A stretch of 64,000 nucleotides of DNA from a virus (taxonomy: Duplodnaviria; Caudoviricetes): IMG/VR virus record IMGVR_UViG_3300032030_000005, positions 128,001-192,000 of that record; one strand, written 5' to 3'. The position numbers and the translations under genes were made by a program. Positions 12,947 to 57,223 of the stretch are shown in pieces (within the stretch, counting starts at the first letter, position 1; every line of letters starts with the position of its first letter). The notes under the pieces are model-generated. The model searched no databases and was not told where the DNA came from. It saw only the letters and a program-made list of their open reading frames with translations.

Positions 12947-13138
12947 ATGGATTAAAGTATGCTATCCGGAGAATCAATGTAAATCTTTTCACCTCATCAT
13001 GCATTGATATAGATATTTTAATCTAAAAATCGAACAGAATAATAACCAAAAACACACTACTTTAAAAAGGAGATAATGGCTACGGACCATTCGAAAAAAT
13101 AATGTTTCTTCAAATAAGGCCATTATCTCTTTTTTTTT
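12947..13138 (+). ncRNA. Candidate small RNA with an anti-Shine-Dalgarno-like loop
   Basis: Early motif at 12933; long G-U-containing stem 12949-13024 with loop AAUCUUUUCACCUCAUCA; closing stem AAAAGGAGAUAAUGGC/GCCAUUAUCUCUUUU plus U tract. Confidence 0.5.
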
Positions 13139-13895
13139 ATGCTGCAGGAATATCTTCAGTATCTAATTTAACTTTCTCTAAGAAATCTACATCTCCCATA
13201 TCGAGATATACTTTCTTAATTCTAAGCTTATCTAAATCTAATTCAGTATCACCATCAAGAATTTCATTAGTCTTGTTATTAATTAAATTAAGCACTTCCT
13301 TATAATTACCATATTCTTTAGCATTATATTCATCTATAAAATCATGATAATTACCAAATACATATTTATTAGTTAATGGTATAAATAATTCACCAGCATG
13401 GTATAATTCATGAGGAGTTACTGATAAAGGAACTAAGCCAACTTTTCCTTCATAATGAAGTCTTAATACTTCCTTAGAAATAGAAAATGGATTTAAACAT
13501 CTATCAAACAGCTTTTGATTAGATGGATCTTCCATTTGATTCTTCATTCTATTTTGAATAACTATTGAAGTTATATCAAATATAGTAAAAGGATAATGAT
13601 GCATTTCAAATGAAATCTTACAATTATCAGATATGTCTATATTTTTAAAAAAAGCACATTTTGTTAAATCAAATTCAGTTTTTAAAATCTTTATATATTT
13701 TCTATATTCATAACTAGAACGAATCATCTTTACAATCTGTTTTGTATAATCCGAAAGAGATTTTTCATCTTCGAATATATCCATATATAATTCTCTAAAA
13801 TCTGTATAATTGTGAGCATCTACTGAAAGTACTATATGACCATCATCTTCTACTGTATTATTTTTTAAAGTTTCTGATAAATTTGGTACTAACAT
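13137..13895 (-). CDS. Hypothetical protein with an HNH-like Cys/His arrangement
   Basis: CAFF...EMHHYPF...GLVPLSVTPHELYH; late-type motif at 13921-13932. Confidence 0.55.
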   Translation of the reverse strand: MLVPNLSETLKNNTVEDDGHIVLSVDAHNYTDFRELYMDIFEDEKSLSDYTKQIVKMIRSSYEYRKYIKILKTEFDLTKCAFFKNIDISDNCKISFEMHHYPFTIFDITSIVIQNRMKNQMEDPSNQKLFDRCLNPFSISKEVLRLHYEGKVGLVPLSVTPHELYHAGELFIPLTNKYVFGNYHDFIDEYNAKEYGNYKEVLNLINNKTNEILDGDTELDLDKLRIKKVYLDMGDVDFLEKVKLDTEDIPAA

Positions 13896-13984: not shown

Positions 13985-14452
13985 ATGAATTATGAAGAAT
14001 TATTTTTAGAAGGTTATTATGATGCTTTAAATGAAATAGAAGAAGATTCTTATGATGAATATGAAGCTTATAATGAAGAAGATTTAGAAGAAGCATATCT
14101 TGAAGGTTATTATGCAGCTTTAAATGAAGCTAATAAATACGAACAATATATGGGTATGACTAAAGGTCAAAAGCAACAAGCAAGATATGATAGAAATAGA
14201 GCTGAAGATACAACAAAATATATAACCTTAAAAAATGGAAAAAAAGGTGCTATTGGAAGGGCTTCAAACTTTATGTATCATAATATGAACGGTAGAAAAG
14301 TTGGTTCAGATTATGGTTCAAATTCATACACTGTAATGCAAAAAGGATTTAATAACGCACCTGAAAATAGAGAAAAGAATATAAGTTCAGTTTCTTCTAG
14401 AAATTTAAGAAGAGGTAGTGCATCTAATAGTTGGCATAATATTGATAAATAA
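13985..14452 (+). CDS. Acidic-leader / basic-cargo protein A (candidate internal head protein)
   Basis: Acidic leader with two LEGYYxALNE units followed by a K/R/N/G-rich domain. Confidence 0.7.
   Translation: MNYEELFLEGYYDALNEIEEDSYDEYEAYNEEDLEEAYLEGYYAALNEANKYEQYMGMTKGQKQQARYDRNRAEDTTKYITLKNGKKGAIGRASNFMYHNMNGRKVGSDYGSNSYTVMQKGFNNAPENREKNISSVSSRNLRRGSASNSWHNIDK
13991..14128 (+). repeat. 138-bp perfect inverted repeat, arm 1
   Basis: Reverse complement of 14919-15056; both arms encode the same 46 aa. Confidence 0.9.
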
Positions 14453-14501: not shown

Positions 14502-15071
14502 TTAAAAATCTTTTTTCTTTAAACCATTTTTAGTTTGTACATATTTACCTTTATTGGTATAATATCTATGCTCAGTACCATCACTAGTGGTAAAAGTTGC
14601 TCTACTTGGCTGACCACCATAGTATTTAACTGATGAACCAAGCATATCATGCATTCCTGCAGAATTTGGATTAACTGATTTTCCATCTATTGTAGCACTA
14701 GTTATATATTTACCTTTAGTTGATGGATTTACACCTTTATTATGAATTAATCTTCCTTTAGTCAGTCCTCTATATGATTTACCTTTTTCTTTAGACATTT
14801 TTCCCGGATGCATAAGTGCTTCTATTTTTCTTCCTTCATGAACATTACCAGCTTTCATTTGTTTTCTCCATTCACGAGCTAAAACTTTATTATGTTCTTG
14901 TTTATTATACTGACTTGTTTCATTTAAAGCTGCATAATAACCTTCAAGATATGCTTCTTCTAAATCTTCTTCATTATAAGCTTCATATTCATCATAAGAA
15001 TCTTCTTCTATTTCATTTAAAGCATCATAATAACCTTCTAAAAATAATTCTTCATATGTCATTATAGACAC
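14502..15071 (-). CDS. Acidic-leader / basic-cargo protein B (candidate internal head protein)
   Basis: Same 46-aa leader as 13985..14452; unrelated Lys-rich C-terminal domain. Confidence 0.7.
   Translation of the reverse strand: MSIMTYEELFLEGYYDALNEIEEDSYDEYEAYNEEDLEEAYLEGYYAALNETSQYNKQEHNKVLAREWRKQMKAGNVHEGRKIEALMHPGKMSKEKGKSYRGLTKGRLIHNKGVNPSTKGKYITSATIDGKSVNPNSAGMHDMLGSSVKYYGGQPSRATFTTSDGTEHRYYTNKGKYVQTKNGLKKKDF
14919..15056 (-). repeat. 138-bp perfect inverted repeat, arm 2
   Basis: Reverse complement of 13991-14128. Confidence 0.9.
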
Positions 15072-17959: not shown

Positions 17960-18178
17960 TATGAAATATGAGACTTCTATATCCCAGTATAATTAACCAC
18001 AAGGAGGTGATTATAGTGGACTGGGATATAGAATGTGTAGAATAATAAGATAAAAGAATCTTATTACTTACTAAAAAAAAAAAGAAAGGAGGTGGATCGC
18101 CGATGGGCGTTTGTTATATTTTACACCGTAAGGTGATCGAGATCGTGTTATTATTAACCATCCCTTTCTTTTTTTTTT
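17960..18178 (+). ncRNA. Candidate structured RNA or short-ORF mRNA
   Basis: Early motif 17947; 14-bp perfect stem TTCTATATCCCAGT/ACTGGGATATAGAA enclosing ACAAGGAGGT; second long stem A10GAAAGGAGGTGG/CCATCCCTTTCT10. Confidence 0.45.
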
Positions 18179-18222
18179 ATTTTCTCCTAACTATATAGAA
18201 TAGTTAGGAGAAAAATTTATTT

Positions 18223-18378: not shown

Positions 18379-19718
18379 CTTGTGTGGACTATATTTTCAC
18401 TTACGTGCCTTCCGTTTGTGGGCTGTTGGATCACCCTTACTCTACTCCCTTCGTGTATGTATTTCAACTTACCTTATTCTCCATATAGAAGTTACATTTA
18501 TTATTTGGTTTCGATAGTCTCTGAACTCATATCCTATCATTATAGGATACTTCGCTGCATCGATTAAGCAAAAATTTAAGTCTTATAACCATACCTAAGT
18601 CTGTTAAACTTCGCCACTATATATATTACTACTATAGTTTGGTAACTTAAATCGTTTAGCTATTCCTGCAATTAGAAAGGTTTAATGACGGCCACACCGT
18701 TTCAAAAAGAATATTTCTTTAATATATCTTTAATAATATCTTCTAAATCATCATATTTTTTATATGATATTCTATATAAATCAATATTATTTTTATTTTT
18801 ACAATATTCATTTTTAATTTTATCTCTTATTTTTTGTTCTTGTAAGTCTTCTTGTGAGTATGGATTTCTTTCATGAAATTCTCCATCATATTCTATTAAA
18901 ATAATTTTTCCAGTATTACTTTCTATTTTAAAATCAAATTTTAAAGGTTGTTTATAAATACAGTCATTAAATATATAATTCTTTTTAAAAGGTATTTGTT
19001 CTTCTTTTAAAATATATGAAATTTTAGTTTCACCTTTAGATTGCCTACAATAAGGGCATCGATATCCTTGTTGAAAATCATTTGGTCTTACTAAATATTC
19101 TTTATTACAATTTTTATGTAATATTTTATGTTTAATTTTATTATTATTTTTATAATTTTCTAGCCATTTATATTCTATACCATCAATTGATTGATTTAAA
19201 AGATTTTCCAAATAATTTTCTTTTATTGCATATTTACCTCTATTTTTATTAGAACAATAAGGACATCTACTTTTTTTAGAATTTAAAAACATATTTGGAG
19301 AAACATTAAAAGTTTTATTACATATATTATGTTTAAGTAAACATTTATCTTTTGTATTTTTAAACCCAGAAATATAACTATACTCATTTTTTGTTTCTTT
19401 ATTCAATCTCTCTATAAATTCTGTTTCAGTAACTTTTTTAGTAGATTTATGAATAATATTTTTACAATTTTGACATCTAGATTTTCCTTCATTTAAAAAT
19501 CCTTTTAATTTACATTTATAAATATTTCCACAATTATGTTTTAAAGTTACTTCAGTTTTAATTCCTTCTGGAAAAATGTTTGTTAAACATTCATACTCAC
19601 CATTCTCAATATTTTTTACTCTATTTAATAATTCTTCGCTTGTATATTTCATAATAAACACCACCTAACTATAAATAATTTGTTAGATGGCGATTCCAAC
19701 ATTTCTTTTTAAATATTG
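18379..19718 (-). mobile_element. Group I intron in RNAP beta' with the homing endonuclease in the P1 loop
   Basis: 5' exon ends GACGGU; IGS GAAACGGUGU-G-GCCGUCA (18686-18703) pairs with both exons, with U-G at the splice site; P7 GACUAU/AUAGUC; terminal G. Confidence 0.9.
18702..19664 (-). CDS. Intron-encoded homing endonuclease (zinc-ribbon repeats plus Vsr/EDxHD-like domain)
   Basis: Repeated H..C...RCPYC units; C-terminal SKGE..FDFKI..IEYDGEFH..RD..KN.YC. Confidence 0.85.
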   Translation of the reverse strand: MVFIMKYTSEELLNRVKNIENGEYECLTNIFPEGIKTEVTLKHNCGNIYKCKLKGFLNEGKSRCQNCKNIIHKSTKKVTETEFIERLNKETKNEYSYISGFKNTKDKCLLKHNICNKTFNVSPNMFLNSKKSRCPYCSNKNRGKYAIKENYLENLLNQSIDGIEYKWLENYKNNNKIKHKILHKNCNKEYLVRPNDFQQGYRCPYCRQSKGETKISYILKEEQIPFKKNYIFNDCIYKQPLKFDFKIESNTGKIILIEYDGEFHERNPYSQEDLQEQKIRDKIKNEYCKNKNNIDLYRISYKKYDDLEDIIKDILKKYSF

Positions 19719-21080
19719 ACCGTCAAAATCCCCTCCCATAGCTTCAAGATAGAAGCTATTAACACGAACGGTATCTACAAAGAAATCATGATTACTATTT
19801 TTATTTTTATCAGGATAATCTTCTAATATTAAAGGATAATCTTCAAAATAATCATTTCCTAATGTCATTGTACATGTTTTCTGTGTTGATAATATCTTAA
19901 TTCTACTAGGATATATATTCTGGAAGTTAGCGATTGGATAACGAGTTACATATACATGTTTAGTTTTTACTACTTCACTAGCTACTATAAATAATAAATC
20001 TGTAATAGTGAAATTTCTATGTAATTCTTCTTGATATAAACCGAGATAATGAATAATTCCTTGGTCATCTTTGAAAGGAACTCTATCAAATCTAGATTCA
20101 TGGTTTTTAATATATGAATTACATAATTTTTTTATATGATCCTCATCAAAATTATCCATAAAATGATTAATTGTACAATTAAAGTTTTTTTCTACATCAT
20201 ATTTAAAATCATCTAATTTTCTTTCAAACCATGCTTGCATTTCATATATTATAAATGGTAAGAATAATACAATTACCTGTGATAAAGGGACACCAGTTTC
20301 TCTAAAGTTTACTTGTGTCTTCTTCCATGTAGGAGCTGTTACCATAGGACAAGAAATAACAGATCTTGTAGAATAGTCTATAGATTTACCTAATAAAGCT
20401 CTATGTATAAGACCTGTTTTCTTAGCTAACTGAGATGTGCAATAATCATATATTTGAACTAATAAATCCTGAATTAAAGAGTCATTTGTGTATGATAAGA
20501 AATTAAAGCTAAAATCATCAGTTGACTGACAATATCTAATAACCTTAGAATACATATCATTTATAGCGTCTACAGAATCAACTCTATCATTATTTTCAGT
20601 AGGCTGAAAGTCCCTAATAAACGGTGGTATTACTAAGAACTTATTAACGAATAAAATATCTTTAGGGGTCTTATTAAGTACTAATATTTTTTCATCTCTG
20701 GTAAATGAATCTGAACTCTTGAATCTAAACTTCTCCCAGTTATCATATAAGAATGATATACCTGTTTGTCCATTTTCATCTTCAATGATTTCACCTTTAC
20801 TATTAACAGAAAAATACTTAGTACCGTTTATGCAACCAGCTAATTTACGATTCATACTAATAAGAATCTTATATGTTAATGGATGTAAAAATCTTTTCTT
20901 TAAATCTATATAACCGAATATTTGTTTTCTATCTTCCGAACCCATTTGTCCAAATAATTCTATAGATAATAAGCCATCAGATGTTGGCTTATTACCAAAA
21001 TTAAAAAGTATAGCATTGGTAACTTCAGGACATTTATTTCTTTTAATGAATTCGTCCATATTTGTTAAATTAATATTCAT
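19719..21080 (-). CDS. rpoC: Exon 1 of the second RNAP beta'-N subunit (likely virion RNAP); spliced product about 505 aa
   Basis: DGLLSIELFG, FGYIDL, GKSIDYSTRSVI, VTRYPI, MGGDFDG|; downstream of a late-type motif (22021). Confidence 0.9.
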
Positions 21081-21993: not shown

Positions 21994-22058
21994 ATTTAAT
22001 CATTCCTTTCTTAAAAAATATAAATGTTTGTTGAAGGATAAGATTTTTTAATAAAATG

Positions 22059-22318
22059 AAAAAAAAAATATCCACCCTGCAGTGTGGATATTTAAAAACT
22101 CTCACTCTGCAGCGTGAGAGTTTTTACTTCTTCGGGATCATATAAAGCTCCTTTTCTACTCTCATCGTGGATCCCTACTTCATACACTTTGAGAATAAGG
22201 TTTTTCTTTTTACCAGGATTCGATATTTTATCGAACACAGAAAAACTCTCTAAAGACCTGGACAGTGCTAACTATTGAAGAATAACACACGCACTGTCTA
22301 ATATGTATTATTCTTCAC
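22059..22318 (-). ncRNA. Candidate ~260-nt structured ncRNA (5' H-type pseudoknot, two internal domains, twin CUGCAG-loop hairpins)
   Basis: Early motif 22323-22332; several complementary stems whose G-U pairs work only on the minus strand; ends in hairpin plus U tract; no substantial ORF. Confidence 0.65.
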
Positions 22319-22356
22319 GATTATAATATATATTTAATATTATAGTTTATTACGGT

Positions 22357-22977
22357 TTATTTATCATCATCGAATAATAATAGTAAACTAATCTCAGCTG
22401 CAGTAGCTTCATCAGTATCTATTTGTAAAGTTCTTGTAAATTTATTATAAGATACTTTACTATATTGTTTAATGATATTAACATCACCAACGCTATCATA
22501 TAAAGATATTTCAAAATAATTTTTTGAATTTCTGGACCAAGACCAACTATCTATTGTTGGTATCAACTTATCATAATTAGTATTATTCACAAATATATGA
22601 TTAATTGGTACTGAACAAAAGCAACAACTTAATAACTCTTTTAAAGTTACATCTATATCTACATATATAATTACTGATGATAGGGATGTATTTTTACATC
22701 CCATTGCAATTATCTCATCAAAGAATGAATTATTTCTTCGATTAAGATAAGGTAATATTAATGTATTTTGAGATGTAGATGGTATAAACGTATCAAGATC
22801 TTCTTCTATTTCAATTTTTTGATTATATAGTAAAATTATATTTAAATTAGCTATTATTTTTGTAATAATATTACCTTTTAATATTAAATCTCTATAAGAA
22901 TTATTATTCCTTTTAATAATATTGTTAAGGCCTATTAACTCATTCACATTCTTTATCTCATAAGTATTATTATTCAT
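22357..22977 (-). CDS. Hypothetical protein, distant member of the 41011-43576 family
   Basis: C-terminus LQIDTDEATAAEISLLLLF. Confidence 0.55.
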   Translation of the reverse strand: MNNNTYEIKNVNELIGLNNIIKRNNNSYRDLILKGNIITKIIANLNIILLYNQKIEIEEDLDTFIPSTSQNTLILPYLNRRNNSFFDEIIAMGCKNTSLSSVIIYVDIDVTLKELLSCCFCSVPINHIFVNNTNYDKLIPTIDSWSWSRNSKNYFEISLYDSVGDVNIIKQYSKVSYNKFTRTLQIDTDEATAAEISLLLLFDDDK

Positions 22978-22985
22978 ATGATCAC

Positions 22986-23537
22986 CTATAAATTAGCTTG
23001 AAGTAATAATAAGGCTTCAAATTTTTTACTTTCATTTTCAATATACAATGTTTTATCTTGAATGCTATAAGATACCAAACTACCTCTTGGTATGCAAATA
23101 TCTTTAAATTTTGTATGAGATAAAAGACTATATACTGATACAAAAGTAGATGTAGTTTCATGGATAATAGAATTATTAACCATAAATTTTCTCACTATCC
23201 CTTCAGCCGGTAATACTCTAACTATATCTTTACATGTTACAGCATCCATGTTTATAGTAAAAATTATTTTATTAAAGCTTTTATTACAGCAACGTATTCT
23301 TCCTATAGTTTGTTTATACGCATTTATATTTGTACTAGTTACAATAATTGAGAACGGAGCATATAAATTTTCAACAACTTTATCCTTAATCTTGATTATA
23401 GTTTTTGAGTCATATTTTTTACTAGTTAAATACTTATACATAACATATAAGTCACTAACACCTTCTATTAAGAAGGTGTTATTTGGACTTACTTCTAGAT
23501 TATAGAAAGTGTGAAATTTAATTTCTACATCATCCAT
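22986..23537 (-). CDS. Hypothetical protein, paralogue of 22357..22977
   Basis: Shared VSY....TL.I C-terminal pattern. Confidence 0.55.
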   Translation of the reverse strand: MDDVEIKFHTFYNLEVSPNNTFLIEGVSDLYVMYKYLTSKKYDSKTIIKIKDKVVENLYAPFSIIVTSTNINAYKQTIGRIRCCNKSFNKIIFTINMDAVTCKDIVRVLPAEGIVRKFMVNNSIIHETTSTFVSVYSLLSHTKFKDICIPRGSLVSYSIQDKTLYIENESKKFEALLLLQANL

Positions 23538-43668: not shown

Positions 43669-44598
43669 ATGAAACGATTAACTGATTCAGCTATATTCTC
43701 TAAGTTAATTAATAATGGTGAATTAATTAAGAAGATGAAATTAATAGTATCTCAGAACGGTATTACTTTATTAACACCAAAAGATTTAGAGATTCCTTAT
43801 GCTGATATAAATAAAAGAATTAAATATTCAACTAAACAGCCTATCATGAATATGGTTGCTAAGGGAACTATTGTTCCATTTAGAGATGTCGCTACTAAGA
43901 CTCCTTCATATCTTCCAACTGTAACCGGTAAGGGAACTAACGGTGACTATGTAATATATGTTAACCTTGAAAGATATATGAATAGTTCTGGAGAGATTTA
44001 TCCTAAGACATTATTTGCTTTACTTCAGGAAGCCATGGTATCTTATGAATTTGCTAAAAAGTGGGATGTATATACAAACAATCTTGACTTTGTAAAGGAT
44101 ATTAGCTTTATATATTCAAGAATTACTACAAAGATATTAGATAAAGTATTTGCATTAGACTTAGATACCTTTAATTCAGATTTACTTTCATTCATTTTTG
44201 CAAAGTTCTGCATTATTAATATGTGTGAAAGAACTGATAATGATTTAAATGATAATATTGCTTATAAATGTTGTTTTAATAAGTCATCATTAGATATGAT
44301 TAAACAAGAAGAAGAATCTATTAGTCCTAATAGATATAATTCATTCTTTGAATTAATTGATGCCATTAAAGAGATTAAGACAATTAAGAATATTAATTTA
44401 AGAACGTTTGTAGAAAACTTTACTCGTATGTATGGTGAAAGTAGCTTATTAGCGTTAGACTATTTACCAGCTTTAATGCAAGTATTAACAAGTACAGCTA
44501 TTGGTGGTGGATTAACTAAGGACTATATGTACGAAAGTGTTGCAGGTAGATATATTGATAATCTATATATTACTTTCTCAAAATTAATTACTTATTAA
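43669..44598 (+). CDS. Hypothetical late protein, probably structural or assembly
   Basis: GAGGTG RBS; AACA-N6-TA at 43621; first gene of the operon with the giant protein. Confidence 0.6.
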   Translation: MKRLTDSAIFSKLINNGELIKKMKLIVSQNGITLLTPKDLEIPYADINKRIKYSTKQPIMNMVAKGTIVPFRDVATKTPSYLPTVTGKGTNGDYVIYVNLERYMNSSGEIYPKTLFALLQEAMVSYEFAKKWDVYTNNLDFVKDISFIYSRITTKILDKVFALDLDTFNSDLLSFIFAKFCIINMCERTDNDLNDNIAYKCCFNKSSLDMIKQEEESISPNRYNSFFELIDAIKEIKTIKNINLRTFVENFTRMYGESSLLALDYLPALMQVLTSTAIGGGLTKDYMYESVAGRYIDNLYITFSKLITY

Positions 44599-44623
44599 TA
44601 ATTAATAGGAGGTGTAAGATAAC

Positions 44624-47600
44624 ATGAGTAATAAAAAAGATGGTATCTTTTCACTTATCGATGAAAAGAATTTTAGTTATAGAAACTATAATAATGAAAC
44701 CGATCACTATACTTATAAAATAGATAAAATTTTTAATTACGACAGTTATCTTTTCGTCCTTTTTAGTAAGTTATACTTAGAAAATAAATTGATAGGTGAT
44801 TCCGTAACAAGGAATCACCTTTATTTAATAACTATTGAAAAGAATGGAAGGGAAATAACTGATACTACGGCTTTAGAAAAAGAATTATTTGAATTAATAG
44901 ACAATAATAAAGTAGTAGATTTATATGCTGGTAAGTATAAAGCTACTATTATTATAAATAATTCTGCTTTTAATGCTACTATTTCTAAGATTACTTCCGA
45001 TCCTGCAGAAGGTAATCCTTGGGCTAGAGTATATAGAAAGTTAAAGGCGACTTCAGATTTAACAGAAGTTTCATTTAAAAAGATTAATACAAATCTCAAT
45101 GATACTGTACATATTATAGATGATGAGCCAATTACTATCACTAATGAAAAAGATGAATATACATATGCAGACATAGATCAATTCATTACATTATATCATA
45201 ATATACCAACTAATAATGGTACTATAGACATGTATGGTACAAATTCAGGAAGAATTGGTATAAATAATATTACATCTAACACTATTACTGAAGAGGAAAG
45301 AGCTCAATTAACAAATATTAATGACTCTAACAGAATGCTTTATAACTATGAATATTATTGGGATAGTTCTATTGAATCTGAAGACTATTCAGTAGACATG
45401 AAGTTCTTTAATCAGTTCTTATATAATAGAGACTACAATGATAATACATTAATGGGTGATATGAATACATTAAAAATATTCCCATATTATGAAAAGAACT
45501 ATTTTGGTGGATTAACTGTTGATGGTCGTACTAGTACTAATATTCATAATTATACTTATAAAGATAAAGCATTTATCACAGATTGTTTATTAACTACAAA
45601 TATAGATGATAACTATATCAATTTTAAATCATTAAATGCTTGTACATCTCAAGAATCAAAGGATATACCAATAGTATTTTTTAATCCATTATTAATGAGT
45701 CAATCAGAATTACTTGAAGTGGATAGTAAATTAATATATCGTGAAGATGATAAAATTATTGATAATTATATATCTACGGATTATAAAACTAAAACTGCAA
45801 AATATATGCCATATAGTCTTTACTCTTATTCAAGTAAATATAATACATCTGGTATATTACAATATATTGATATAACGGCTGAAATGACAAATGTATTAAC
45901 TTCATTAGAAGTTAAAAATTATTTACAGCCTATAAAAGTATTCTATAATTATTATTTTTTATATGATCCGACAACACATAAGCTTGAACAAAGAAAACTT
46001 TTAAGTAAAATTCACTTTAATAATGAAGATATTAAAATAGAAACGGATTTTGACTGGGTAAATGCTAGTATCTCTAAAATTACTATTAATGAAACAACTG
46101 TTAATATAGAACATTCAACAATAGAAATGAATTATCGTTTAGCTTTCTTTACTGATAGTTTTAATGAAATTTTAGCAGGTAATAATATCTTTATTCTTCC
46201 TAGATTAGATCCAATAACATATAATGACTTATTAGATGATAAGAATTCTCAAGAAAATGCTATGGTTTGTTATATAGAAGAAGTAGATATGAGTTCTGTA
46301 GATAATTCAACATTACCATTCTATACAATTAAACAATACGTGTATAATAGTGCAGATCATGAATGGACATTAGATGATGATATTATAATGATGATTATTC
46401 CAAAGGATTCTAATTGTAATATTAAAATGAATAATTTAAGAATGAACGTTCCAACAACAAGTTCAAATATTAGTGGTTGTAGAGTTGAACGTTTTAAATA
46501 TTATGATCCTAATGAAATAGGTGTATGGGCAGAATTAGATAAACAAACTACAGATGAAACTTTCTTCTATATGAATAATCCGTTAATTAAGAAAGATACA
46601 AAAACATTTATTAATGCAACTTCTGTAGACAATGTATTTTATAATACAAATAATACAACATCTGTTAAATATACAAATAATACGTCTGTGTATAATATAG
46701 AAAGAGAATTAAATGATCTTTATCCAAATGTATCTTATGATAGTCAATTAGTAAACTTTAATAATTTTGGTAAAGATAATAAATACAAGAATACTTCTTT
46801 ACCAGCTTATTTAGTTGATATAGACGGTGAAGGAACATTCTATGATGGTAGATTATTATATAATAATGAAAATGATAATGAGAAAAAATTAAGAAATAAC
46901 TATAATACTACATTTGAAAATATTGTTAATCATTATATGACTGTACCTGGACGTTCTCCATTTGATCGTTTTGAAGAAGTACTTAAAGAATTAAATCCAT
47001 TATTTAACATTAATAAGACTTATTTATATCTTATTTCAAAAGGTGTTAATTGTTCGGGCATATATTATAATACAAGTGGTGTTATAAATACTACAACTGA
47101 TACTTTAGAGTCTGATAAATATTTTATTTTAGATAGAATTAATATATCTAATTTAAAAGAGTTTTCAAAATTAGCAAATATTACATTAGAAAATATAGAG
47201 GATATAACACTTAAAACTAATTATCCAATATATTATAAATTTGAAGATATAACTATTAAAACTATAGCAAATTATTATCAAAGTCTTCTTGAATTATTAA
47301 TTCGTATATCGGCAGATGATAGTATAGAATTATTATTTACTAACAATGAATACGATATGAGTACAACAATAATGAATTCTTTAACAATGAAAACATCTGT
47401 TAAACCATTCGAAAGTATTAATGCTGCATACATTTTAAGTAGACATTATTTTTATGATGGAGCTGTTTCTATTAAAGATCTTATTACATTTGGTATTAGA
47501 GATAATCATTTAATATATGAAGGTATATATAATGAAGAAAATAAATATATCTTAAGAAATAAATTTATCAAATCTAGTAGAGAAATAGATCCTCAAAATC

Positions 47601-50600: not shown

Positions 50601-53600
50601 TAAATATTGAAAATACTGATAAAGCAACTTTCTTAAATATGAGAGTTAATATCAATAATAAAAATATCCCTGAAAATGATAGATACTATGAATTTGATTA
50701 TCAGTTAATTTCAACATCAACTCCTATAGATCCTGATGATTATGTATTTAATGAGCACAATCTTGTTAAAAATTCAGTTATCTTTGAAGAAAATGATATT
50801 TATAAGAATGTATATGTATATATGCCTCGTACATTACTTGAAAAAGGTAGCTTTAATTTCATGAAAGATGAGAATGATGCTATTATTAAAAGAAATGAAA
50901 AGACATATTTAATTAACTATAAAAATGTATTAGACCCATCATTCGATAACAGTATCGTTGAAAATTATGCAAATATTATTAAAAATAATACATCTGATCT
51001 TTATAGTATACCAGCTAAACTTAATTATAAGATTATAGATAATTATTTCCCTAATAATGCTAATACATATACAGTTACTAAACTTCCTTATAAATTTAAT
51101 ACTAGAGATTATTTCATTGCTAATATAAATAATGGTATTGAAGATATTAATCGTTTGTATTTTAGATGGAGATATATTGGTGATCTTCCTATTAATAAGA
51201 AAACTACAAGTAGTGATCCTTCAATATACGATGATGATGAAGTTAAAGAAACAGAATATGATTATTATGTGTTATCATATATTCGTAAGGGATATGATAA
51301 TGAAGAAATTAATGAAAAGACAATTATAAAAGATGTTAGCAAAATGTTAAAGGGATATCTTTCAAGAACATTTGATGCTTCATATAGTGCTTATGATTTT
51401 ATGATTAATAAGCTTGATACATCTGAAGATTTTAAATGGGCATATATAAATATTCCTAAGAAAGCTACAAATTGTACTTTATTTAATATTATAGTGGCTA
51501 AACAAAAGTATAATTATGAACAACAAATACAAGGTGATCCACACTTTGATGATTTTAATGATACTTGTTGGTTTGATGAAATCTTATTTGAAGAAAGCAT
51601 AGACTATTCAGTATTTTTAAATATCAATAAACTTAAGAAGATTACTATTCCATATGAAAAAGTAAAAATTACATATGATGAATATATAGACTTCTTAGAG
51701 TATATGGAAAATTCTATAATATTTACTACTAGTAATTATAATTATAAAATAGAATTTGCATACCAACCAAATATTGATTATACTAATAAAAATAATAACC
51801 CTATAAATCTTATAGCTACTGAAAATATTAATAATGATAAAGATACATTAATGAGTAATGTATTTAATAAAATGATATTCATTCCAAAACATGACTTCTA
51901 TTTCCAATATTCAAATTTAGCTGAAGGTTCAGAATATGAATCAAGTTTAATTCCTATCAAAGTATATGGTGCATATAATAATAAGACAACAGATTACTGT
52001 CAATATTTTAATGCTGATTATATGGAATGGATTGGAGGAAGTATCCTTGGTGGAGGATATTATAGGCCATTAAATATTTATAGAGATTTTATTAAATGGA
52101 AATATAAATATAATACATATGATGAGTATGATAACTTCATCTGGAGTTTAATTTTAGAAGAAGCTGATATTCTTAATTTCAAGTTAAATCCTAATGATGG
52201 TTCATTTACTTTATATGATACTAAGATGAGCACTGATGTATGGTGGTATAATGATAATACTAATGAAAATTGGTGGGATAATTCTATTTATAGAAATATC
52301 TGGATAAATGAAAATTATATGCCACTTAAATCTACAACATTCTCAGAAGAAGTAAATGTTTATACTGATGAAATGTATAATAATGGTTTATCTTATAATA
52401 CTAGTGCTATTGGTTTATTAAATCTTTCAACAAATCTTAATGATATAACGCATCATGGTATTGAAAAACGTTTATTACCGACAGTATATATAGACGGATT
52501 AAAATTATTTAATGAATGCTATTATCATAAAGACTTAATGAATAACTGTCAGGATATATACATAGATCCAAGCAATGTTAGAAGTTATTTTGTTGATACA
52601 AATGAATTCCCATTCTTTAGTCGTTTAATAGGATTAATGAATACTGTAAATCAGAATCAAAAAGCATATTTAAAAGCTTATAATAAATGGATTGAAGAAG
52701 GTAGTTCATTATCTGATAAACCTGAAGAACCTAGTCATACAATTAACCTTAAAGATATACTTTCTAATATTGAAGTTAATACTAACTTTGGTTTAATTTC
52801 TGAACAAGAAAAATTAGTAGCTTATATAGAAGTTAAAGATAAGATAAATGAAACTGGAACGGTTACTAGAATTGTTAAATCTTTAAATAATGAAACCGGT
52901 GCATACTTTGTATCAGATTATTCAGAAACTAATATTAATGATGATTTAACAATTGATGAAAATAATCTTGTTGAACCTTCTGAAAATGTAATCTCTAATT
53001 GCTTAAATTTACAATTCGATGATCAATATATTAAGAATATTATTAACAATAATGATAGAATTAATATTTATATTTCTTATAGAAATGATATTGGTGGTAA
53101 ATATGCAAGAAGAATTAATCCTAAGTTTGTAAGCGTTAATATTGAAAACCAGAATATTAATTTACAAATTAGAGGTCTTTATACATATGAACATTTAAGT
53201 ACTATTTATATAGTAACAGGTGATATTAATAATCATAATATGTTCTTCAGGAATATTGATTCTGAAATAGAATATATTGATTTAGTAGAACTTGGTAGTA
53301 TGTCAGATGGTACATTATTTAAATGGTTATCATATGATACAATTGTATCTTCTAAAGATGTAGAAATTAATATGAATGGATATATCTTATATCCTGAAAT
53401 AGATTATACTATTATCAATAGTGAAGATAATGCTAATAACACAAATCTCATCATGTTCAGAAATAAAGTACCTTCAAATGGTAATATCAGTGTTGAAATA
53501 AATCTTAGACCAGACAGTCAATCTAAGTTAGTATATAAGACTAGTCAGGCTAAATCTATGTGTATCAATTATGTCAATAACTCTTATAAGAAAGTACCTA

Positions 53601-55393: not shown

Positions 55394-56048
55394 TATTATT
55401 TTTAAGTTGTTCTAATTCTTCTAGAGTATCATATCTTATTACTGTACATGATGGTGGGAATACTCTATCTTCTATTATAGTAGAATTAGGCACATATGCA
55501 GTTTGAACGCTACTTTCAAAGAAGGATTCAGATTTTAAGATTTGTACCTGTAATGGAATAGTTATTGTAGTTATAGGAGTATGAGCGAAAGCTCCTAAGA
55601 GTTCAGGATGATCTGTATGAGTCTTTAAAACTGTTCCATCATTTCTATAGTTCTCTTCTATATTAAATACATTCCAAGGAAATTCTTTCTTAAAGTATGC
55701 TAAGTCTTCCATATATATGATAGATAATTCATTATCCCTATCAGTAAATTCTTCTAATTTCCAAATATTAAGAGGGAACTTATGTTTAAACTTAGCTAAA
55801 TCTTTTTCTTCAAATATCATTAAACCAGAATCTTCATCAAATTTCCAAGTATTTAATGGAAATTCTTTCTTTAATAATACTACATTTGGCATATAATATT
55901 CTTGTAAATTAGAATCTTCTAATTTCCATGTATTTATAGGAAACTCTTCTTTAAATAATACTATATCTTCTGCTTCAATATTTCTTAAATCTTTATTTCC
56001 TTGACCATCATCATAAATATACCATACTTCACCAGCCATGATAGTCAC
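55386..56048 (-). CDS. Repeat protein (four FKxEFPxNxW units) with a C-terminal BspA-like LRR
   Basis: FKEEFPINTWK, LKKEFPLNTWK, FKHKFPLNIWK, FKKEFPWNVFN; GAFAHTPITTITIP..V..L.SESF. Confidence 0.65.
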   Translation of the reverse strand: MTIMAGEVWYIYDDGQGNKDLRNIEAEDIVLFKEEFPINTWKLEDSNLQEYYMPNVVLLKKEFPLNTWKFDEDSGLMIFEEKDLAKFKHKFPLNIWKLEEFTDRDNELSIIYMEDLAYFKKEFPWNVFNIEENYRNDGTVLKTHTDHPELLGAFAHTPITTITIPLQVQILKSESFFESSVQTAYVPNSTIIEDRVFPPSCTVIRYDTLEELEQLKNNNP

Positions 56049-56053
56049 CTCTT

Positions 56054-57223
56054 TTATCCTTCATCTTCATACATAATTGGGAATCCCATTTGTATTAACC
56101 AGTCTTTGTCTACTAATTGAGCATCTGTAGGAAATTTTATATTTGAATTCCATGATAAATTACTATCCAATAATAAATTTGTGTTAATTAAATTTGTATT
56201 AGTCCAATTACCTTGAACGTTATATACACTATTATCATATGGATGAAGAGTCGTAAATCCAGTATATACTGAAGCAGCAGGTGTTTTTGCTTTAATTTTA
56301 AATACATTATTTGAAAATAAGCCTAAAATTGTTGTACCACCTGCTGAACCTGTATCACCAGTCATATACATATCTAATGATAAATAATTATCATTATATA
56401 AATATATATTAAATTTATTATTTTCTATAGTATAACCTGTAAAACCACCACTAGAAGTACCTCTAAATAACAGATATTTTTTATTTTGAATATCCATAGT
56501 AAGTTTAAAATTATTATTAGTAATTTTAACATTATTATTCCTAATTTCAGCAATATATTTTGTACTATTTATTGGAGTAACAACTCTTATATTAAAACTA
56601 TTATTTAATATATACGCTGGATAATTATTCCCAGTATATATTAATTGTTGGTCGTGTTTATTAATTACTATTGAAATTTTACAATTTTTAAGAATAGCCG
56701 GTTTACCTGATCCACCATCCATTTTAATTATTGCACCCGATTCAGTTGATTGCCCATTATTAAAATAAGCATTTACTATATTTAAATTAGAAATTGAACT
56801 GCCTATTGAATTTTGAGTCACTGTCAAAAAAGGATTATTACCAACATTTGTAATATAGAAATTTTTAATAGTGCAATCATTTCCATCAATAATATCTCCA
56901 TTTGATGTAAATACATGTGTTGCTCCTTCTGGCATAACTTTATTCATATCTATAGTCTTTTTCTTTCTAGATATATCTTCTGTTGTATCACCAGTTTTAA
57001 CAGATTCTTGTTCCCAGCTAGCTATTTCATTTGCAAATTTTATATATAAATTTTTAGTACTAAGATGTGTTAAATAATCAAATAATTCATAGCTATCAGG
57101 TCTAAATGGATTAACTTCAGTACCATCACCGGCAACAGCGTAATATTCCATTGCAATAGGATTCCAACCGTATAATACTCCTTCTTCGATTTTAGGATCT
57201 GGCATATTAATCATTCCTTTCAT
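56054..57223 (-). CDS. Putative beta-helix receptor-binding/tail protein
   Basis: GDGTEVNPF start motif, IDGNDCTIKNFY, repeated I.NN.F.I strands. Confidence 0.55.
   Translation of the reverse strand: MKGMINMPDPKIEEGVLYGWNPIAMEYYAVAGDGTEVNPFRPDSYELFDYLTHLSTKNLYIKFANEIASWEQESVKTGDTTEDISRKKKTIDMNKVMPEGATHVFTSNGDIIDGNDCTIKNFYITNVGNNPFLTVTQNSIGSSISNLNIVNAYFNNGQSTESGAIIKMDGGSGKPAILKNCKISIVINKHDQQLIYTGNNYPAYILNNSFNIRVVTPINSTKYIAEIRNNNVKITNNNFKLTMDIQNKKYLLFRGTSSGGFTGYTIENNKFNIYLYNDNYLSLDMYMTGDTGSAGGTTILGLFSNNVFKIKAKTPAASVYTGFTTLHPYDNSVYNVQGNWTNTNLINTNLLLDSNLSWNSNIKFPTDAQLVDKDWLIQMGFPIMYEDEG

Follow-up and report, generated by a model that had tools for sequence, protein, structure and literature searches.

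A putative structured early RNA with twin palindromic hairpin loops in an AR9-like jumbo phage genome

Locus and predicted transcription unit

The DNA analysed here (the window) comprises 64,000 nt, positions 128,001 to 192,000, of IMG/VR record IMGVR_UViG_3300032030_000005, a 305,865-bp virus genome (~306 kb jumbo phage). The minus strand of the window is predicted to encode a structured non-coding RNA (ncRNA) of about 258 nt, located ahead of a gene for a 301-aa protein and the gene for the beta' subunit of the virion RNA polymerase. The part of the latter gene at 19683-21080, encoding the N-terminal half of beta', showed its best cultured matches in Bacillus, Listeria and Staphylococcus jumbo phages, including AR9 and PBS1 (40–48% identity), and the AR9 match is annotated as a virion polymerase subunit. 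The phage is therefore considered AR9-like, and its relatives point to a host among the Bacillota.

Early promoters of AR9 have been described as AAATATATATTAT-(6N)-G, with G as +1, and late promoters as AACA-(6N)-TA/G (PMC5312081). An early motif upstream of the RNA on the minus strand, noted in the original prediction, was found to match the early consensus exactly at 22335-22323, which places +1 at 22316, the first base of a 14-bp stem. The motif alone was not enriched over shuffles in the AT-rich window; its extended form occurs in about 50 copies genome-wide, mostly just upstream of genes. On the 3′ side, the second of two CUGCAG hairpins is followed by ten U, a late promoter (22032-22021) and the 301-aa gene. 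Among the relatives retrieved, the corresponding site contains only a plain terminator or another small cassette ahead of the same gene. The promoter, the terminator and the differing content in relatives indicate an accessory RNA unit, complete in itself and about 258 nt long; with an early consensus with G at +1, a terminator and no conserved open reading frame (ORF) it has the layout of a stand-alone AR9-type early unit. Folding of the whole region gave z = −4.9; by part, z was −3.6 for the 5′ 60 nt, −1.1 for the middle and −6.9 for the twin hairpins. That the RNA is real, selected and structured is considered very probable. The features are listed in Table 1.

Table 1. Predicted features of the RNA locus, in window coordinates.
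Feature	Position	Strand	Evidence
AR9-type early (virion RNA polymerase) promoter motif	22323..22335	-	Exact consensus match; G+1 = 22316 after 6 nt
Predicted ~258-nt non-coding RNA, whole unit	22059..22316	-	Fold z −4.9; no Rfam match; covariation with sister L138
P1, 14-bp stem from +1, 12-nt loop	22277..22316	-	Pair probability 0.98
H-type pseudoknot stem, 22298-22291 with 22268-22261, 8 bp, loops 4, 0, 8 nt	22261..22298	-	p about 0.0013
Possible second pseudoknot, CAGG 22260-22257 with CCUG 22217-22214 (latter in internal loop)	22214..22260	-	Both strands invariant in L138; putative
Long irregular stem, 22254-22239 with 22207-22188, 5-nt bulge, topped by internal loop and UCGAUA hairpin (22236-22218)	22188..22254	-	Two compensatory and two wobble-keeping changes in L138
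GGGAUC/GAUCCC domain, inner 5-bp stem, invariant 9-nt purine loop (22157-22149) holding Shine-Dalgarno-like AAGGA	22134..22175	-	Three compensatory changes
Shine-Dalgarno AAGGAG (22153-22148) and 5-codon minigene MIPKK (22141-22124)	22124..22153	-	Peptide differs in L138
Hairpin H1, 13 bp, loop G-CUGCAG-A (22113-22106)	22093..22126	-	Pair probability 0.95; invariant in L138
Hairpin H2, loop A-CUGCAG-G (22083-22076), with U10 = predicted intrinsic terminator	22059..22093	-	Probability ≥0.89 in all folding scenarios
AR9-type late promoter AACA-N6-TA, for the 301-aa gene and the virion RNA polymerase beta' gene	22021..22032	-	Sequence compared with PMC5312081; motif shared by relatives

Fold and covariation with a sister sequence

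A sister sequence (L138) was reached via a variant of the 301-aa protein in a Logan contig (SRR30832625) that is ~97% identical to the window in that gene. L138 contains the element from 22275 on; the first 28 nt there are unrelated sequence at the contig end, and P1 lies outside. Pairs were counted in a pairwise alignment in Python, with as reference an earlier minimum-energy fold of the window sequence alone, with the pseudoknot fixed, which had been set before the sister was found. Seventeen substitutions were detected in 133 middle positions, and five pairs were compensatory (22245:22201, 22243:22203, 22175:22134, 22172:22137 and 22159:22147), covariation of the kind asked for in the original prediction, in one related contig. 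The remaining changes converted two pairs to G.U, removed one terminal pair and affected loops in four cases. None of 300,000 permutations gave at least five compensatory pairs, in a single comparison and with changes assumed to be independent. Folded alone, the middle 130 nt gave z −1.1, with alternative folds within 0.3 kcal/mol. The compensatory changes establish that the irregular stem at 22254-22188 and the domain of GGGAUC/GAUCCC are RNA structure under selection on the minus strand.

Two elements of the middle, as originally described, were recovered: the internal UCGAUA/UAUCGA hairpin is present in the sequence, and so is the GGGAUC/GAUCCC domain, whose helix of that name carries two of the compensatory changes. 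AGUA (22179-22176) and GAA (22133-22131) flank the base of this domain in both strains, in a layout that we take to be that of a loop-E motif. By contrast, CCAGG/CCUGG was not upheld as a closing helix, as its first C sits in the pseudoknot and the covarying stem 22254-22239/22207-22188 crosses the pairing; because of this crossing, the only way for it to form would be as a further pseudoknot, stacked on that of the 5′ end. Of the alternative pairing proposed for the upstream GAGAGUUUUU (22241-22250), the repeat itself exists, but two substitutions in L138 break the pairing with the H1 arm, and a 10-mer repeat of this kind turns up in 4% of shuffles. The upstream copy is, as judged from the alignment, the 5′ strand of the predicted long stem, and no switch. 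A helix between 22198-22191 and 22163-22156 (probability 0.84 in unconstrained folding), which would make GGGAUC/GAUCCC a further pseudoknot, was rejected in favour of the nested fold, which accounts for more of the substitutions.

At the 5′ end, the claimed 14-bp stem (22316-22303 with 22290-22277) was found, including two G.U pairs. GACAGUGC forms the 3′ part of its 12-nt loop, and the predicted pairing with 22268-22261 is a perfect 8-bp complement; an equally near one was obtained in 26 of 20,000 shuffles. The 3′ strand of this pseudoknot is identical in L138, which covers neither the 5′ strand nor P1. The modelled geometry is tight, with 8 nt crossing a 14-bp stem, and the base of P1 may need to fray. 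Two further early leaders of the same genome carry H-type pseudoknots in a scan of early transcripts. At genome positions 234474, 286248, 298094, 228021, 68869 and 115730, all beyond the window, early 5′ leaders combine a short H-type pseudoknot with an A-rich linker directly before the ribosome-binding site, and two passed the scan.

RppH of Bacillus works only where the 5′ nucleotides are unpaired, and RNAs gain stability when their 5′ end is occluded (PMC3997798), which together with the paired +1 makes the 5′ protection originally suggested plausible. As a special feature of this RNA it did not stand, since a paired 5′ end is clade-wide in early transcripts: +1 to +3 were paired (probability >0.8) in 37%, 61% and 62% of early transcripts in three genomes, against ~10% in shuffles. 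The protection reading is thus sound but generic to the clade.

Twin hairpins and competing explanations

The two adjacent hairpins with different stems, the same CUGCAG in 8-nt loops and a following U tract were all found as originally described, the tract being U10. H1 and H2 have a common head, CAC-R-CUGCAG-R-GUG, whereas stem positions 4–7 differ and all four pairs are compensated. The two are best read as a duplication in which the loops were kept while the stems turned over, and the presence of identical heads on compensated, diverged stems argues for selection on the CUGCAG loops. A GC-rich palindromic loop was detected in H1 and H2 only among 365 strong hairpins of this and two related genomes. 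Both loops read R-CUGCAG-R, a GC-rich hexamer palindrome in an apical loop with unpaired flanking purines, as in the dimerization initiation site (DIS) of HIV-1, and the computed duplex energy was −7.7 kcal/mol for CUGCAG compared to −7.9 kcal/mol for the DIS hexamer GUGCAC. Homotypic extended duplexes were computed to be favourable and the mixed H1/H2 one unfavourable. A swap of palindrome among homologues was looked for, and the loops were identical in the one sister sequence. We lean slightly towards the CUGCAG loops pairing loop to loop in some form.

In the explanation that we prefer, the injected virion RNA polymerase would start the early ncRNA at 22316 and end it at the H2/U10 terminator, and the paired +1 and the 5′ pseudoknot would shield it from 5′-end-dependent decay. 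From the two middle domains, invariant single-stranded segments would point outwards, probably to be bound by a protein or the ribosome, and selection on the purine-flanked palindromes would most likely be for pairing between loops, as in HIV-1 DIS. Pairing between molecules (dimers, rings or chains) would be the simplest geometry, because the full stems abut with zero linker; two homotypic loops could give open chains besides dimers. During early infection the RNA would likely act on a host protein, as a multivalent scaffold or decoy. The RNA is regarded as an accessory gene because related phages are without it. Multimer formation through these loops in the cell, with the RNA serving as decoy or scaffold as just described, is held tentatively, at a little under an even chance. 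A bolder version, in which the back-to-back palindromic loops, one of them the RNA's own terminator, polymerise it early into rings or chains that display the invariant loops and soak up a host defence or translation factor, is considered distinctly unlikely.

Several points weigh against the multimer explanation. Transcription of the 258-nt unit is deduced from motif matches, and the host partner is likewise conjectural. The covariation comes from one sister sequence and spans neither P1 nor the pseudoknot, and an invariant palindrome gives no covariation signal. The twin hairpins showed no change in 61 nt in L138, compared to 17 changes in 133 nt of the middle, but given the 3% divergence seen in the neighbouring gene, a stretch of 61 nt would stay unchanged in 16% of cases; the invariance is significant relative to the RNA middle and not relative to this 3% background. 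The loop comprises 1+6+1 nt here and 2+6+1 nt in DIS. Finally, frayed A-U stem bases would leave a 9-nt linker that could permit kissing within one molecule. Of the original interpretation, a structured phage RNA outside the catalogued families is supported, with an early promoter and a terminator of its own and loops that look selected; multimerisation and the scaffold, protein-decoy or antitoxin-mimic roles are unsupported so far, and nothing in the RNA resembles a known antitoxin RNA.

The alternative that survives best is a monomeric RNA whose identical heads are tandem sites for a (possibly dimeric) protein, or kiss intramolecularly as in the guanidine-II riboswitch, the RNA acting as decoy or sensor without multimers. 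Conservation of the closing three base pairs together with the loop would fit protein recognition, although the palindrome would then be superfluous. The twin loops of guanidine-II do kiss intramolecularly (PMC7357161), and the lower stems here are A-U runs that could open to the 9-nt linker, but at a cost of about eight A-U pairs; the 7–40 nt linker and the ACGR loops of guanidine-II are both missing. We consider this explanation possible and rather unlikely.

Less likely still is a tandem duplicated terminator that insulates the late operon from a strong early promoter, with an incidental palindrome and the 5′ 190 nt as the working RNA. Five U also follow H1, a simple terminator occupies the H2/U10 position in relatives, and near-palindromic terminators are common in the genome (54 of 203 strong hairpins with 0–2 nt centres). 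However, one hairpin suffices in the relatives, and after the duplication four paired stem positions changed while the loop hexamer did not, the reverse of usual terminator behaviour.

A further explanation, which we rate as improbable, is that the RNA binds ribosomes, with the invariant purine loop as a Shine-Dalgarno (SD) site that captures 30S subunits and stabilises the RNA or allows a tiny peptide to be made. AAGGAG stands 6 nt from an AUG, the SD-bearing loop is invariant in L138 with GUG in place of AUG, short ORFs occur in other early units of the genome, and non-coding SD sequences stabilise Bacillus RNAs (PMC3997798). The peptide itself fares worse: MIPKK, its Lys-Lys-stop end and a 13-codon longer frame are all missing in L138, where the frame encodes an unrelated 12-mer, and the start codon overlaps a covarying helix. 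The MIPKK codons are moreover atypical, being rare for this phage. A toxic minigene of the lambda bar type was rejected, the frame and the Lys-Lys end being missing in L138. The sister data argue against a peptide or a peptidyl-tRNA trap, while 30S binding could coexist with the preferred explanation.

The weakest alternative, a cis-acting attenuator or riboswitch on downstream read-through, or a DNA element (a pair of tandem palindromes, with 30 bp between centres, acting as operator or cruciform), is hardly credible: a long-range helix is predicted to dominate the nascent 205-nt transcript of this strain and the palindromes lie just upstream of the late promoter, but the terminator formed in every folding scenario, substitutions in the sister disrupt that helix, a late promoter of their own serves the downstream genes, and wobble-keeping changes and G.U pairs suit a minus-strand RNA and not duplex DNA.

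Distribution, neighbouring elements and known systems

As expected from the original prediction of a novel RNA, no known family was matched: a search of all Rfam 15 families (including pRNA, ROOL, GOLLD, ARRPOF, tmRNA, RNase P, SRP, riboswitches and small ribozymes) gave no match at gathering threshold and, at E 10, nothing near threshold, the best E-value match scoring 23.6 bits against a threshold of 55. ARAGORN detected nothing in the RNA region, and a search for retron or other reverse transcriptase-associated ncRNAs found no PF00078 match in the genome. No real homologue emerged from BLASTn against 50,697 phage records. Pattern scans of viral, metagenome and genome contigs returned only matches without the twin hairpins, the metagenome scan being weak as it used one exact pattern. 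DNA searches and covariance models (one- and two-sequence) detected nothing in 14 related records, including the complete 265-kb relative G001 and AR9; a weak covariance model match in another relative, G002 (E 0.03), was lost with the two-sequence model. Nor was a paralogue found in the phage's own genome. The RNA was thus found in two strains only, which makes it an accessory element of maybe narrow reach.

A 29-nt piece of the RNA resembles a leader family of G001, scoring above 1000 shuffles. The covariance model of these leaders misses the RNA, and the piece is diverged in L138; it is a weak lead. The family consists of seven copies of 150–195 nt structured 5′ leaders of small early genes (loci L069, L070, L072, L074 and L078; e.g., L069:4634-4817, plus strand), each with a 5′ hairpin, a covarying H-type pseudoknot and a domain that combines AGUA/GAA strands with a UGAAAAGAUA loop. 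G002 has one diverged copy (L079 14684-14837, minus strand), and the family has no Rfam match.

Outside the window, the genome has five further folded units that lack an ORF and carry an early promoter and a terminator each (43927-44757, 52563-53055 and 55733-56105), and none was a paralogue of the RNA by BLASTn, nhmmer or covariance model. Within the window, an early unit at 17963-18200 (plus strand) contains a 9-codon ORF with Asp-Trp-Asp, and the matching site of G001 has a 15-aa acidic peptide ending in Asp-Trp-Asp-Asp, hinting that this ORF may be a real micropeptide. An early folded unit at 12949-13140 (plus strand) contains an 8-codon ORF, and G002 has a tRNA operon in the same slot; such slots look like exchangeable early-promoter cassettes. 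At the end of the G002 tRNA operon (L079 17190-16940, minus strand), four short hairpins, each with a GAAAGGA loop, precede a terminator, in what looks like a CsrB-type or SD-decoy array. An ORF-free folded spacer from tRNA-Arg to a tRNA-like stretch (L079 17440-17290, minus strand) includes a small hairpin with CUGCAG in an 8-nt loop.

The ORFs flanking the RNA at 22357-22977 (206 aa) and 22986-23537 (183 aa), both on the minus strand, are orphans; no relatives were found among 1.8–5.8 billion proteins, and hence they gave no route to related phages. They are weakly similar in their C-terminal halves (E 0.07) and are possibly old paralogues. The virion RNA polymerase beta' gene (18380-21080, minus strand) is split at its catalytic DFDGD motif. 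The insert is a likely group I intron, which contains an endonuclease ORF (18702-19664), is missing from several relatives and was not picked up by Rfam at gathering threshold. The convergent ORFs at 13985-14452 (plus strand) and 14502-15071 (minus strand) share a near-identical acidic N-terminal stretch of ~50 aa ending in Ala-Leu-Asn-Glu, which resembles the prohead-protease-cleaved propeptides of phiKZ-related head proteins.

Compared with known systems, the RNA shares its promoter class with the early transcripts and 5′ untranslated regions (UTRs) of AR9, where long UTRs with predicted motifs of unassigned function have been reported (PMC5312081). Unlike these UTRs, the present unit ends in a terminator and lacks a conserved ORF, and neither covariance model finds it in AR9. 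It adds a covariation-supported example to the early ncRNAs of AR9-like jumbo phages, a class without known function. Like phi29 pRNA, it is a phage RNA with two loops capable of pairing between molecules, but the pRNA loops are complementary, non-palindromic and pair head to tail, whereas those described here are identical palindromes. The RNA is absent from the complete relative G001, and its absence from most related phages argues against an essential packaging role.

The tandem GACG hairpins SL-C/SL-D of murine leukemia virus (MuLV) and guanidine-II (mini-ykkC) likewise have neighbouring hairpins with identical self-complementary loops. Theirs are tetraloops joined by two base pairs, and guanidine-II has ACGR loops, a 7–40 nt linker and a position upstream of a gene's ribosome-binding site, whereas the phage RNA has 6-bp palindromes in 8-nt loops, zero linker, a terminator and no Rfam match to this riboswitch. 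Adjacent identical self-complementary loops pair between molecules in MuLV and within them in guanidine-II, so that the sequence alone cannot tell which applies here. HIV-1 DIS/SL1, in which kissing requires purines flanking the palindrome (PMC7357161), has a similar GC-rich 6-nt palindrome in an apical loop, with similar computed duplex energy and homotypic extended duplexes favourable on paper. DIS is one loop, however, whereas the phage RNA has two adjacent loops at its 3′ end, one doubling as terminator; the two have no sequence or evolutionary link, and kissing in the phage RNA is predicted.

ROOL, GOLLD, OLE, ARRPOF, manA and EGFOA, ornate self-assembling RNAs of bacteria and phages, are also structured RNAs of unassigned job with loop-loop potential. 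ROOL, GOLLD and OLE are far larger than the phage RNA, which is limited to two strains and has no Rfam match, whereas ARRPOF (255 nt) is similar in size. Oligomers made of RNA alone are rare in nature, and few short ones are known; with 258 nt and a pair of DIS-like loops, this RNA is an inexpensive and direct candidate for native gels and cryo-EM. If the preferred explanation is right, this RNA, which by the tests run belongs to no such family, may nevertheless work like DIS or like an ornate self-assembling RNA.
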